A stretch of 31,378 nt of DNA from a virus (taxonomy: Duplodnaviria; Heunggongvirae; Uroviricota; Caudoviricetes): IMG/VR virus record IMGVR_UViG_2648501787_000011, positions 1 through 31,378 of that record; one strand, 5' to 3'. Positions 7,796 through 31,378 of the stretch are shown here, one piece after another. Both the position numbers and the translations under genes were made by a program. Position 1 is the first letter of the stretch. Each line of letters starts with the position of its first letter. The notes under the pieces were generated by a model. The model saw only the letters and a program-made list of their open reading frames with translations, was not told the origin of the DNA and did not search any database.

Positions 7796-7991
7796 GCTGT
7801 TTCTCCAGTTGCTTTATCAGGCGGAACAGCTGCCGCAGGGGCAGCTGTTCCAGGTACTGAATGCTGAATCGCGAAGACAGGTTAACCAGCAGGTTCATCA
7901 GTGCCGCCGCCAGCGGCATCAGTTCGCCCCCGCGTTGCCACCTCCTCAAGCATTTCATCCAGCGCAGCGGCTTTCGTGCTGATAAGTTCAA
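7782..7991 (-). CDS. Candidate frameshift extension of tail assembly chaperone (alternate-frame ORF)
   Basis: Open frame, +1 relative to the chaperone ORF, overlaps its 3' end and ends 14 nt inside the tape-measure start. Region contains GCGGGGGCG (minus strand; C-run at 7927-7931 on plus). Unlikely to start independently at the track Met. Confidence 0.4.
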   Translation of the reverse strand: MNLSARKPLRWMKCLRRWQRGGELMPLAAALMNLLVNLSSRFSIQYLEQLPLRQLFRLIKQLEKQHGNR

Positions 7992-12184: not shown

Positions 12185-12262
12185 GACTCTGCCTTTTAAA
12201 AGGCAGTTAAAAGGGCATTCACAGCGCCTTTTAACTGCGGGTTACAGATTACGGATGACGGG

Positions 12263-26141: not shown

Positions 26142-27080
26142 TTACGTGCGCAGCAGGGTTGAAATATCAACGTCCAGGTCTAATTCACGGAAAGCCTGAC
26201 GCAGATAATCTTCATTAACACGTTCACCTTTACCGTGGGCGGTCATGGCAGCAAGGCGCAGCGAGTGGTTCAGGATGCGAAGCGCACCTGGCTTTTGTGC
26301 AATCTGCTGTAATAATTCCCGCTCGTTTTCGCCGGTAATTTGCCAGGCATCCGCAATGGCTTTTACATCATCAATTTTGGTTTTATTGATTGCCGTCCGT
26401 TTGGCAATACGGGAAAACAGGCGGGCAAATTCAACCGTTCTGTTACCACCGGTCATGTTTGAATAAACACGGTGATTCCCCATCAGAACAAGGCCAATAC
26501 GGGCGGACTCCTGTAACAGGCGGAGTTCTTCCAGAACCTCAGCGCCAAGATGATCAGCTTCGTCGATAATGACCAGCCCCTGGGTACCTTCAAGACGGCG
26601 TCGCAAAGCGCGGGAGAGTGGCCCCTTACGGCGTGGTGCGTCATTCATTCCCAGTTCATAAGCCAGTTCAGTCAGGCATTCCAGAACACTGGCACAGGAT
26701 GGGGTAATGGTAATCATCCAGACATTGTTATTGGTGCGACGAAATTCGCGGGCCGCTTCAGTTTTTCCCACACCTGGATTACCGCAGATAACAGAAATAC
26801 TTTCAGTCAGGCTGGCAAAACGCATACTCGTCCAGATTTGGCGTGCTGTTCTGGTTTCCACAAAACGTGGTGGTTCTGGCAGCTCTGCGGCACGGTGATA
26901 GTTCTCCAGCCAGCGTTCCAGCATCTGCGCAACACGTTCATTGTCGCCGTTGTACTTGTTATTCACGAATGCGCTTAACGTTCCTGCGGCCACGCCAGAC
27001 TCGCGTGCAATTTGTGCATAAGTCGCTTTTTCACTTTCTACAAGCGTGCGCAGTCCTGCGCGAATATCGGAAATATTCAT
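26142..27080 (-). CDS. B: Transposition target DNA activator B (AAA+ ATPase MuB)
   Basis: 312 aa; Walker A GNPGVGKT; recognised as near-identical to Mu B along its length. Confidence 0.95.
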
Positions 27081-27118: not shown

Positions 27119-29107
27119 TTAAATGGCTTTTTTACGTCTGTTCTGTTCCAGAATATCCAGCGAATGATTCAGATATTCATCACGATCAGTTTCATATTCA
27201 TCATCGGGTTCCTGGTATTTCACCTGCACCGTGTTACCGGAAGGCCGGAAAATACCAACAACCCTTGATTCTGGCGCTGCTGCTTCGGCTATCTGCGGCA
27301 GCAGTTCAGCAACTTCCAGCGCGTCCATTTGCTTCTGCGCCTTAATGGCTGCTTTAGTTGCAGATTTCAGTTGTTTCTGGCGGCGGCGATATTCGCGGCC
27401 TGCCGCAGCATCATTAAATGCAACAGGTGCCAGACATTCCGCTTCACAGATAAACCGACCGTCCAGGGTGTAACAATAAACCGTGCTGTGTAACTGCTGT
27501 GGATCAAACCTGACCACAACTTTTTTCACGCCGGCATTCATTAACGCCATGTTGTAATAAACGTTTTTCGCGCCTTTAAGGGAGCCGCCAACTTTAAGCG
27601 TAAACTCGCCTTTGCGTGAAACGTTCACCGCCTCGGCAGGCAGTAACAGCATCCGTTTTTGTTCTTCGGTTGGCTTACGCACAATCGTTCTGGCGTATTC
27701 ACGCTCGAAAACATCATCAAACGAGAGTTTGCCCCCGCACATTTCTGTTTCACGGCCTGTTCTGGCATTGAACATCGCAACACCTTCAGCAAGGGTTTTC
27801 AGAAACAGCTCTGCATCAACAGCACGGTCGCCATAGTTATCAGGTTTTGCCTGCGGATTTGGCCCCGTATATGCGCCAGCCAGTGCCGGATGCTTATCAA
27901 TGTATTCTTCAAGCCCACCAACACCGAAAGCGCGTTCAACAGGTTTTGCCTGGCCCCAGCCTTTACCGGCAACAACGCTTGTCCAGTGCATTTTTGCGCC
28001 CATCAGTAAAAACAGCCCCTTTGGATCGTCCTCTTTCACTTTAAAGCGGTAACGATTGGGCGCGCCCCCCGTCAGCCATTTATTCGCTGCACCACGGGTG
28101 TTATCAATGGTGATGTGAAAATCTTCCGGGATGCCGTAGCGTGTCACCACATCCATGAATGAGAGGCGAATTGAATCGATGTTCTCGCTTACATCGCAGC
28201 GCCAGCCCAGAATTTTTCGGGTTTTCACATCCTGCCAGAACCATGTTTTCGGGCGGATCACATCACCGTTAAACCAGCGTACAAAGACGTTATGCAGATA
28301 ACCGTCGCCGTTGATCCACTGCATGGCGTCCAGGTGTTCCACAGTTCGCTGCTGTGCCGGTATCAGATGCATCAGTGCATGTTCACCTTCACGGCAGGCA
28401 ACAACCATTGCCTCGTCCAGTTGTTGAATCCGGCGAAAGGCCGTGGCACGGGAGGGAATACTCCAGCCATGCTCGCGGGCTGCCAGTTCCAGACGCTCAT
28501 AACATTTGCGGAAGGCGGGTTTTTCCGGTCGCAGATAATCTGCAATCAGAAACTGCCAGGCATCCTCGTCAAATTCACTTTTGTGAACGTTGCGACGAGA
28601 TGCACCACGTCCATCAACAAGTGCAGCCGCCCAGTCAGGCTTCGCAAACTTCTGTACCTGGTAATACTTGTCCCGCAAAGTGGATGCGCTGACCTGGTAA
28701 TGGCCTGCAACGGTCGCAAATGCCGTTTTCGTTGAAATCCCCTGGTTCAGCATTTCGTCTGCAGCCTGAACCGCAGGCAACCATTTTTCAGCAAGTCTGC
28801 GCTGGGAATCGCTGGCGTTATCCCATTTGCTCCACAGTGCCTCACGATCATAATCATGGGCTTCCAGCGTGGGGCGGGCGATTTCAAAACGGCCCTGGCT
28901 TGTTTCAATTCTCCCTTGTTGCAACAGAATTTCAGCACGTAATGTGACAGGAAATGATTTGATATTGAATTCAAATGATACACCTTTAGTTCCTGCAACC
29001 TGCCTGAACTCCCAGCCTTCTCTTTGTGCCTTACGTGTAATGTTAGTGGCTTGCTTTGGTAAACCTGCCAAACCGAGCAACTCTTTTGCTGTATACCATT
29101 CTTTCAT
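27119..29107 (-). CDS. A: DDE transposase A (MuA), D108-type N-terminal domain
   Basis: 662 aa; from about residue 70 onward recognised as Mu A; first ~65 aa differ from Mu and resemble the c repressor N-terminus in this window. Confidence 0.95.
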
Positions 29108-29114
29108 AGCGCAC

Positions 29115-29336
29115 CTAGTATCGAGACGGCCAAATATCTTGCGGTGTCATTCCCAGTGCATCTGCAATGATTTTCTCCGCTTTCGGATATCTCTTATCCA
29201 AAGCATTTTTTAATGTTGAAGACGAAAGATGATTAGATCTTCCCAATTCAGCTAGTGACATATTGCGTTTTCGTAGCGCTGCAACGATGTCAGCTCTGTG
29301 CCAATCTTGGCTGTTAGTTCTTTTATTCATATGCAT
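29115..29336 (-). CDS. ner: Ner DNA-binding regulator
   Basis: 73 aa (D108 Ner length as I recall it; Mu Ner is 75 aa); conserved DWHRADI..A.L...ELGR and IWPSRY C-terminus; first early gene upstream of A. Confidence 0.9.
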
Positions 29337-29521
29337 TTCATGTAATCCTTTCAGATTCCCCCGTGAGCTACGCTATAAAGTAGCTCACGGCATATCGTGC
29401 AATGTAGTGTGGAATCACTTTCAAATCAATAGTGATTTGAGAGGATTTACCGCAATTTTGCATAACGGCATGATTTTTATATGAATTTATTTTATCTCTA
29501 TTGAAATCACTAGGATTTTAA
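29337..29521. promoter_or_regulatory. Immunity/operator region between ner and c (divergent promoters, Ner and repressor sites)
   Basis: Perfect inverted repeat CCGTGAGCTAC-N8-GTAGCTCACGG at 29361-29390; palindrome TCAAATCA-ATAG-TGATTTGA at 29421-29440; repeated (G)AAATCACT 9-mers at 29411-29419 and 29504-29512; AT-rich stretch at 29470-29500. Confidence 0.7.
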
Positions 29522-30046
29522 ATGATGTCTTTTGAAATCAAAGAATGGTTTAATGCGAAAGAGCTGGAAGGGATGCCTGGTGTACCAAAGTTGGCGACTA
29601 ACATTACCAGGAAAGCTGTGGCGGAAGATTGGGTAAAACGTCAGCGTCACGGTGGGAAAGGTGTCGCTTATGAGTATCACATCAACAGTCTGCCAGAAGA
29701 AACACGCAGGGCCATTAAAGGAGCCTCACTTTCTGATAAACCAGTGCATACATCAATCGCCCATACAGTTGATGAGAGGCTAATTTATGCAATGAGCTTC
29801 TTAACACCAGATGAGCAGGCCGCAGCTGTGGAGATCATTCGTGTAGCAGGGATTAAAGGTCTTATGCCTACAATTGTCAGTAAAGATAAGGCATTAGAGG
29901 CATTAGGGATTACTGTGGAGCAACAGAAAACCCTGCAAACTCTTCAGGCATTACCACCGGAAAAAGTGAGAGAGATTTTGTCTCAGTATGAAGGCAAAGA
30001 ACATAATTTCCCTGTAAGAGAAAACGATGTAAAGAAGGCTGTATAA
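29522..30046 (+). CDS. c: Repressor c (Mu/D108 immunity repressor)
   Basis: 174 aa on opposite strand to early operon, between operator and attL; N-terminus shares a DNA-binding domain with A ([26 protein letters not shown]); C-terminus LPPEKVREILSQYEG...KKAV resembles Mu c. Confidence 0.85.
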   Translation: MMSFEIKEWFNAKELEGMPGVPKLATNITRKAVAEDWVKRQRHGGKGVAYEYHINSLPEETRRAIKGASLSDKPVHTSIAHTVDERLIYAMSFLTPDEQAAAVEIIRVAGIKGLMPTIVSKDKALEALGITVEQQKTLQTLQALPPEKVREILSQYEGKEHNFPVRENDVKKAV

Positions 30047-30179
30047 CAACCAGGTAATGGCTAAGACATAAACTTCACTCCAGGTTATTACATATGTAAG
30101 ATACCCAAACAGTGATGATTGTTTTTGATACACAGCACTTGCTGAAAGCCTGGTTGTTACCGTTTTTGAAGCATTTTTG

Positions 30180-30385
30180 AAGCTGTACTTGAAATGATGC
30201 GTGAAGTAATTGCTTTTCGTGTCTTTAATGAATCAAAAGCTGTTTCCAACAATCTTTCGCGTTTCAAGATGTAACGGCTAAAATCTATCCTACAGGCTTG
30301 CAAGCCCCGCTAAATCTAATCCCGCCAAATCCCGAATAATCCAATGTCCTCCCGGTTTTTTTCGTACTTCACGTGAATCAATACA
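30180..30385 (-). repeat. Mu-type left end (attL) with MuA-binding sites
   Basis: Reverse complement starts TGTATTGATTCACGTGAAGTACGAAAA (L1-like); second site around 30258-30275 contains TGAAACGCGAAAG (L2-like); further CGAAAA repeat inward. Confidence 0.8.
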
Positions 30386-30397
30386 ATGTTCAATTCC

Positions 30398-31378
30398 TTA
30401 CTTACTGATAAGACGGTCAAGGGCGACAGCCGCGATAATTAATCCGCCCATCACCACCAGTTGGTAATAGGTTTGTACCTGCAAAATATTCAGACCGTTG
30501 TTGATGGTGCCGATGATCAACCCGCCAATCACCACAGAGAAAATGCGCCCCTTGCCGCCGAAGAAACTGGTGCCGCCAATGATGGCGCTGGCAATGGCAT
30601 AGGTTTCAAAACCCATACCGGCAAGCGGTTCTGCGGCACCGAGTCGTGCAGTTGAGACGACGCCTGCCAGACCTGCACAAACACCGGAGATGATAAACAC
30701 CACCAGGATGTGGAATTTCACGTCAATCCCGGAATAGAACGCCGAGTTTTTGTTGCCGCCCAGTGCGTAGATGTTGCGCCCGAGCCGCATACGCGTTGTC
30801 AGAAACCAAAGGATGAGCGCGACAATTAGCGAGAAGATAACGGGGACAGGTATCCCAATTACGCTGGCGGCAAAGAAGTTCACGAAGTCAAATGAGAAGC
30901 CGTATACCGAGTTGGCATCGGAGATCACCAGCGTGATCCCACGGAAAATAGCGTTGGTGCCAAGGGTGATAATGAACGGGTGTAGTCCCGTCCAGTTGAC
31001 CAGGCAGCCGTTGATCGCCCCCAGTGCGCCGCCAACCAGTACACCGCCAATCAGCGCCGCGAGAAACGGATCAATACCTGCCAACATCAGTTTAGCGGTC
31101 ACCATACCGGAAAGCGCCAGAATCGCGCCAACCGAAAGGTCGATACCAGCGACCAGGATAGCGAAAAACTCGCCCATGCCGATCAATACCGTCACGGAGC
31201 TTTGCACAAAAATCTGGGTAATATTATTGGTGGTCAGAAAATATTCTGACGACAGCGAACCAAAAATGGCGACGATGATTGCCAGGATAAAAAAGGTGCC
31301 GTATTTATCCCAGAACAGCGCAAAGTTGAACGGTTTCTTCTCGCTCGCTTCGCTTTTTACTCTTGTGGTAAAGCCCAT
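30398..31378 (-). CDS. Host sugar ABC transporter permease (RbsC/AlsC family)
   Basis: 326 aa polytopic membrane protein; start codon is the last 3 nt of the window. Length and family fit a D-allose/ribose-type permease, but the gene name is not verifiable here. Confidence 0.85.
   Translation of the reverse strand: MGFTTRVKSEASEKKPFNFALFWDKYGTFFILAIIVAIFGSLSSEYFLTTNNITQIFVQSSVTVLIGMGEFFAILVAGIDLSVGAILALSGMVTAKLMLAGIDPFLAALIGGVLVGGALGAINGCLVNWTGLHPFIITLGTNAIFRGITLVISDANSVYGFSFDFVNFFAASVIGIPVPVIFSLIVALILWFLTTRMRLGRNIYALGGNKNSAFYSGIDVKFHILVVFIISGVCAGLAGVVSTARLGAAEPLAGMGFETYAIASAIIGGTSFFGGKGRIFSVVIGGLIIGTINNGLNILQVQTYYQLVVMGGLIIAAVALDRLISK

Follow-up and report, generated by a model that had tools for sequence, protein, structure and literature searches.

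The lysis-lysogeny switches and transposition enhancers of phages D108 and Mu are classic systems that were dissected experimentally. For D108, Tolias and DuBow in 1985 and Kukolj et al. in 1989 reportedly footprinted Ner on two 11-bp inverted repeats lying 8 bp apart, and Kukolj and DuBow are said to have located the c operators as well as the IHF site in 1991/1992. In Mu, the enhancer overlaps the operators O1-O3 and is constituted of two clusters of MuA sites with an IHF site between them (PMC3145075). That the Mu operator serves also as a transposition enhancer is taken here from the title of Mizuuchi et al. 1986, as listed in PMC3820752. In the Mu GenBank record, the promoters on either side of the spot equivalent to the one described below are annotated as parts of the Ner binding region; older Mu GenBank records have no operator features, and the D108 genome record is likewise without an annotated operator.

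Two other systems are useful for comparison. The solved structures nearest to the Ner protein studied here are those of EnrR, a Ner-like regulator of Edwardsiella (7f9h/7f9i, E=1e-23), which is the closest, and of Mu Ner (1neq). EnrR binds palindromic DNA via its helix-turn-helix, and when it was expressed in E. coli BL21 the cells lysed and a D108-like phage was released (PMC9023278). Thus, a foreign Ner-family protein may be able to flip a D108-type switch. However, EnrR differs from Ner in that its palindromes are AT-rich with a short or absent spacer, and in that it is a global H-NS antagonist and not a phage switch protein. The lambda OR region with CI and Cro is a functional analogue only. 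It also has two divergent promoters under the control of one repressor for maintenance and a small one for the lytic phase, but its proteins are unrelated, and CI and Cro act on the same operators, whereas in the DNA analysed here the Ner and c sites appear to be separate and the c sites would also be used by the transposase.

The DNA in question (hereafter the window, 31,378 nucleotides, record IMGVR_UViG_2648501787_000011) comprises about 31 kb of a D108-type Mu-like E. coli prophage, which it shows reversed. Its c-ner region copies, almost without change, a system whose biology is already known, and is ordinary for the D108/Mu phage family. What the comparison may add is minor, namely a possible third repressor site at 29344-29357 and support for the IHF site from relatives.

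A D108-type c-ner region and its relatives

Judged by the match to D108 in DNA, Ner and c, and by the boundary with host DNA, the window is the left ~30 kb of a D108-type prophage, reversed. In a megablast of 29100-30400, phage D108 (GQ357916) was 97.8% identical to the c-ner-A region over 1286 bp, SfMu was 81-86% identical, and Mu aligned over the left-end part only. Related copies were found in 48 of the 5426 complete E. coli genomes. Ner is 97% identical to D108 Ner, the differences R9S and E20A both lying outside the helix-turn-helix, and c is 99% identical to D108 c. The N-termini of c and transposase A are 55% identical over 60 aa, with PF02316 in both. The divergent c and ner genes are separated by a 185-bp stretch (29337-29521), which constitutes the c-ner control region. 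The coordinates of all the features are collected in Table 1.

Table 1. Genes and observed or predicted sites around the c-ner control region of the window
Feature	Position	Strand	Description
Mu-type B gene	26142-27080	-	From the ORF list
Transposase A, 662 aa	27119..29107	-	ORF; N-terminal domain, PF02316, helix ATNITRKA as in c
ner, 73 aa	29115..29336	-	ORF; first gene of the early operon; Pfam HTH_35 PF13693, E=8e-29
Possible O3-like repressor site	29344..29357	.	AATCCTTTCAGATT, AATC-N6-GATT; overlaps the ner Shine-Dalgarno; tentative, weak
Predicted Ner operator	29361..29390	.	Perfect 11-bp inverted repeats, 8-bp spacer; rarity, identity to D108, covariation
Candidate early promoter Pe	29401..29429	-	-35 TTGATT 29429-29424, 17-bp spacer, -10 TACATT 29406-29401
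O2-like cluster, four half-sites	29412..29448	.	Holds the 8-4-8 palindrome and the Pe -35
O2-like half-site	29412-17	+	GAATCA
O2-like half-site	29423-28	+	AAATCA
O2-like half-site	29433-38	-	TGATTT
O2-like half-site	29443-48	-	GGATTT
IHF-like site	29463..29475	-	AATCATGCCGTTA; one mismatch to WATCARNNNNTTR; an A/T tract adjoins
O1-like cluster	29503..29518	.	GAAATCA 29503-09 (+), GGATTT 29513-18 (-); overlaps the c Shine-Dalgarno
c repressor, 174 aa	29522..30046	+	ORF; Pfam HTH_Tnp_Mu_1 PF02316, E=3e-51
Further half-site	29534..29540	+	GAAATCA in the first c codons, 31 bp from the 29503 copy; direct repeat

The corresponding stretch of D108 (GQ357916, about 865-1049) has the same genes, order and spacing, the same Ner palindrome and all the conserved half-site cores, and differs by about a dozen substitutions between 29417 and 29493. 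Where the window has the block CGCAATTTTGC (29451-61), D108 has CATGATTTCAT with an extra TGATTT. As most relatives share CATGATTTCAT with D108 at this place, the window and E. coli E94 represent a variant without one TGATTT half-site of D108. Both read C(G/A)CAATTTTGC at 29451-29461, the second base being G in the window and A in E94, and this local cluster of changes resembles a small recombination patch.

Shigella phage SfMu and the RM11911-type E. coli prophages share with the window the Ner arms, the half-site cores and the predicted Pe, and differ in the palindrome spacer and in the IHF-like middle sequence; their c is 91% identical. Mu is more distant. It has the same divergent arrangement of c and ner, half-site clusters that flank an IHF site and double as transposase enhancer, as those of the window may do, a DNA-binding N-terminal domain common to repressor and transposase, and a Ner site between Pe and ner, where the window has its predicted one. 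Nevertheless, no DNA is alignable in the c-ner stretch, c and Ner are only 32% and 49% identical, the half-site is of the CTTTT type and the Ner site of the ACTAAGT type. Also, Mu has three operators, where the window has two clear ones and a third that is only a candidate. A third immunity type is represented by the prophages of E. coli cS51a and STEC388 (cS51a type), with c 40% and Ner 65% identical to those of the window.

The left end of the prophage (…CAATACA) lies at 30385, and host DNA (alsC) begins at 30386, 12 bp past the alsC stop codon. The prophage has apparently inserted within the alsE start codon (AAGGAATTGAACAT at the junction; window 30380-30400), and alsE is thus probably separated from its start.

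The inverted repeat upstream of ner

A reading made earlier from the letters of the window (the sequence-only reading) had described a perfect 11-8-11 palindrome at 29361-29390, and the palindrome is present at exactly these coordinates, with arms CCGTGAGCTAC (29361-29371) and GTAGCTCACGG (29380-29390) around the spacer GCTATAAA (29372-29379), of which 6 of the 8 bases are A/T. It lies upstream of ner, as had been said, at a distance of 24 bases from the ATG at 29336 instead of the 25 bp given. The 31-kb window has 3 places with a perfect inverted repeat whose arms measure 11 bp or more and whose spacer is up to 20 bp long, while Markov simulations predict 0.18; no second copy of the Ner half-site was found anywhere else in the window. 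The two other palindromes of this size are GGAACAGCTGCC-5-GGCAGCTGTTCC and GCAGTTAAAAGG-12-CCTTTTAACTGC (window 7823-7851 and 12190-12238), the latter being preceded by a further palindrome, CTGCCTTTTAAAAGGCAG; either might be a terminator, a late-promoter element or a coincidence of coding sequence.

The proposed fit to the D108 Ner site was supported by the comparison with GQ357916, in which 30 of 30 bases are identical, and by the relatives, in which the core of the palindrome goes with Ner. The palindrome is identical in most of the D108-type prophages examined, one variant having a single-base change in one arm. In the SfMu type, both arms are kept and the spacer TCTGCAAA replaces GCTATAAA, as would be expected if the site is read through its arms. 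For more distant comparisons we used 80 IMG/VR loci oriented on ner. These were preferred to a genome-contig scan with c alignment, which returned a single unrelated-looking locus; a scan of viral contigs for the pattern AGCTAC-N8-GTAGCT...AGGAT gave mostly chance matches. Several Ner clades, of 62-79% identity, have an inverted repeat with the core GCTAC-N8-GTAGC located 23-33 bp upstream of ner. The outer positions of the arms change symmetrically in these relatives (ATCAGCTAC/GTAGCTGAT, ATAGCTAC/GTAGCTAT, GCGAACTAC/GTAGTTCGC), and a script run over all the fetched loci found TTATGAGCTAC-N8-GTAGCTCATAA in locus L024, where three outer pairs are altered on both sides. Among 11 distinct Ner-associated sites, the 5 inner pairs are invariant and all 6 varying pairs change on both sides. 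Pairing holds in 95.9% of the cells, compared with 20-45% when the partner column is slid, and the covariation score was reached by 0 of 500 shuffles.

The association with Ner, as opposed to c, can be followed in both directions. The core GCTAC-N8-GTAGC is constant across phages whose c half-sites are AAATCA, AATACA or AATTCA, and three loci (L030, L035 and L047) have AAATCA half-sites and the c helix ATNITRKA, yet a different Ner and no such palindrome. Thus, the palindrome goes with Ner and not with c. Ner clades with other recognition helices have different symmetric or repeated sites, such as TGATTAAG..CTTAATCA, or ACTAAGT in the Mu type. Two perfect 11-bp repeats identical to those of D108, situated upstream of a ner gene of the HTH_35 family and covarying with Ner, therefore support the assignment of the palindrome as a probable Ner operator of the D108 type.

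Probable half-sites of c and transposase A and the candidate early promoter

The sequence-only reading had also proposed a second palindrome at 29421-29440, and this is indeed a perfect 8-4-8 inverted repeat, TCAAATCA-ATAG-TGATTTGA. By itself such a repeat is not rare genome-wide; relatives keep the palindrome with compensating changes. The single repeats listed with it needed some correction. There is a half-site at 29411-29419, but the exact motif given does not hold, as the place reads GGAATCACT and the match is GAATCACT, one mismatch from AAATCACT. The repeats placed at 29504-29512 and, inverted, at 29431-29439 exist, with their coordinates shifted (GAAATCACT at 29503-11 and AGTGATTT at 29431-38). 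Half-sites that had escaped that list are GGATTT at 29443-48 and 29513-18, GAAATCA at 29534-40 and the pair AATC-N6-GATT at 29344-57.

AAATCA/TGATTT is the most over-represented hexamer of 29391-29545, with 5 copies against 0.67 in dinucleotide-preserving shuffles. The four half-sites of the O2-like cluster are 10-11 bp apart, two forward and then two reverse, symmetrically disposed about ~29430.5, and the O1-like cluster is the sole AATC-N5-GATT pair of the window. Conservation was assessed on a set of 17 distinct D108/SfMu-type sequences. Invariant in all 17 are, in the O2-like cluster, AATC at 29413-16, AATCAAT at 29424-30, GATTTG at 29434-39 and GATTT at 29444-48, and, in the O1-like cluster, TGAAATCA at 29502-09 and GGATTTTAAA at 29513-22, the stretch between the clusters (29449-29501) being the most variable intergenic part. 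The conservation of the further half-site at 29534-40 is confounded by the c coding sequence. A 30-nt direct repeat (29480-29509 / 29511-29540, 77% identical) takes in the c ribosome-binding site and the opening codons of c, and places copies of TTGAAATCA 31 bp apart, which corresponds to about three helical turns (window 29480-29540).

The over-represented hexamer shifts with the recognition helix of c and A from one immunity type to another, this helix being common to the two proteins within each type. The D108 type has ATNITRKA. In the cS51a type, whose helix is S(S/A)ISRKA (ASSISRKA), the homologous positions read AATACA/AATGCA/TGCATT/TGTATT: the O2-like cluster becomes AATGCA/TGCATT and the O1-like cluster GATACA/TGTATT. 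As AATGCA/TGCATT takes the place of AAATCA/TGATTT, the central palindrome is kept by compensating changes. The helix ATNITRRA goes with AATTCA, and the Mu helix AGV.Y (AGVHYRA) with CTTTT. This covariation supports the view that the AAATCA half-sites are read by c and by the transposase, and with it the earlier suggestion that the repeats are candidate c operators and enhancer elements; it fits a Mu-type operator that doubles as transposition enhancer. As in Mu, two half-site clusters lie between c and ner, and c and A have homologous N-terminal domains. The pairing of helix and half-site could become a rule by which the sequence of a Mu-like prophage predicts its immunity and its enhancer specificity.

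A strict scan for promoters and terminators gave nothing in the c-ner region. With a looser position-weight scan, the candidate Pe was the best sigma-70-like intergenic site in the window, in D108 and in SfMu, and both of its hexamers are invariant in the 17 sequences. In the cS51a type, TTGCAT-17-TAGCAT is found at the position homologous to Pe, so that in three immunity types the best promoter-like site is at the same place and overlaps the central half-sites. The predicted Pe start would be near 29393, ~3 bp upstream of the palindrome, which would put the Ner palindrome at about +3 to +33. Because the predicted -35 lies inside the central half-site pair, an overlap of operator and early promoter as in Mu, a bound repressor would occlude Pe. 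In the direction of c, the looser scan gave no convincing sigma-70-like site. TTCAGA-18-TATAAA, a candidate whose -10 falls within the spacer of the palindrome, was weak, scored below the threshold and is lost in SfMu; it was rejected, and no site is assigned to Pc. An effect of Ner on c transcription is thus proposed by analogy with Mu and D108.

An AT-rich IHF-like stretch had been placed between the binding elements, and an IHF-like site does lie between the two clusters, although its match, with one mismatch, is not significant on its own. The three loci L030, L035 and L047 carry a perfect WATCAANNNNTTR at the homologous central position and on the same strand as the IHF-like site of the window.

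AATC-N6-GATT matches the 31-kb window only twice, at the centre of the O2-like cluster and at 29344-57, in the interval that separates the Ner palindrome from the ner ATG. The latter pair is invariant in the 17 D108/SfMu-type sequences, a conservation that is ambiguous because the ner Shine-Dalgarno is complementary to one half of it. From one inverted pair to the next, the centres (29350.5, 29430.5 and 29511) are spaced by ~80 bp.

Proposed switch and alternative readings

We consider it very probable that the c-ner stretch works in a D108-type prophage both as lysis-lysogeny switch and as transposition enhancer, made up of a Ner operator, clusters of c/A half-sites and a predicted IHF bend. 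For binding, promoter use and regulatory outcome we infer the following. In the prophage, the winged-helix N-terminal domain of c would read the AAATCA-type half-sites at 29412-29448 and 29503-29518, possibly with the further copy at 29534-40, and c bound at the first cluster would cover the Pe -35 and keep the prophage silent. Two Ner molecules, or oligomers, may sit on the symmetric arms of the palindrome, just downstream of the predicted Pe start and just upstream of ner. Bound Ner would damp early transcription and, if the analogy with Mu and D108 holds, shut off transcription of the repressor in the opposite direction. Since the N-terminal domain of transposase A is homologous to that of c and has the same recognition helix, the same two clusters would serve as the transposition enhancer once the repressor is gone, with IHF bending the AT-rich DNA between them. 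A broader proposal holds that the Ner palindrome is in addition a stable 5' stem-loop on the early transcript, that an O3-like c site lies over the ner ribosome-binding site and that a helix/half-site rule applies; as a whole this appears rather unlikely to us.

The palindrome could also act mainly as RNA, forming a stem-loop, either in the c leader or 5'-terminal on the early (ner-A-B) transcript, that stabilises or attenuates the RNA. The hairpin on the ner-sense RNA is stable (-23.4 kcal/mol, z = -4.5), and the compensating changes seen in relatives are as expected of an RNA hairpin too. Cells that are not Watson-Crick pairs are mostly G.U-compatible on the ner-sense strand (14 versus 5, or ~7 versus 2 independent events, from few lineages), which hints weakly at a possible additional role of the operator as a 5' RNA hairpin of the early transcript. 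Nevertheless, the inner stem GCTAC/GTAGC and the 8-bp length of the spacer are conserved as such across Ner clades of 62-79% identity, and pairing alone needs neither. The type of palindrome tracks the type of Ner; 0 terminator-like sites and no T-run were found, no Rfam match rose above noise, and Ner footprints on the D108 sequence have reportedly been published. A mainly RNA role has, in our opinion, a slim chance of being correct.

Slimmer still is the chance that the palindrome is a third c operator, comparable to Mu O3, and not a Ner site. Its place between Pe and ner is roughly that of O3 in Mu, but it contains no AAATCA-type half-site, and its core remains unchanged when the c helix and half-sites differ and is absent when the c helix is the same and Ner is different; the AATC-N6-GATT pair at 29344-57 would be a better candidate for O3. 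As for the AAATCA repeats, they might be a by-product of AT-rich promoter DNA, with no specific reader, in a region that has 30% G+C against 54% for the window, as short AT-rich words recur in DNA of this kind. We consider this nearly excluded: in 5000 dinucleotide-preserving shuffles of this stretch, 5 copies were never attained, the cores of the half-sites are invariant while their flanks vary, and the homologous half-sites become AATACA/AATGCA, AATTCA or CTTTT as the c/A recognition helix changes. The reading of the stretch as a D108-type switch, with separate sites for Ner and for c and transposase A, is thus the one that we retain.

The practical value of these observations lies in annotation, since they offer a simple means of calling Ner sites in Mu-like prophages, as well as the c/A half-sites from which the immunity type follows. 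RefSeq/PGAP names conceal the phage switch: in loci L004-L012, PGAP names c a 'MerR family transcriptional regulator' or a 'DNA-binding protein', and Ner a 'helix-turn-helix domain-containing protein'. In one of these genomes (L008), c is called from a downstream start. Another record, L094 (IMGVR_UViG_2541047851_000005), has an intact ner and an intact Ner palindrome upstream of it, followed by unrelated G+C-rich sequence in place of the expected half-sites of the repressor and the -35 of Pe, which suggests a truncated or rearranged prophage without c and operator.
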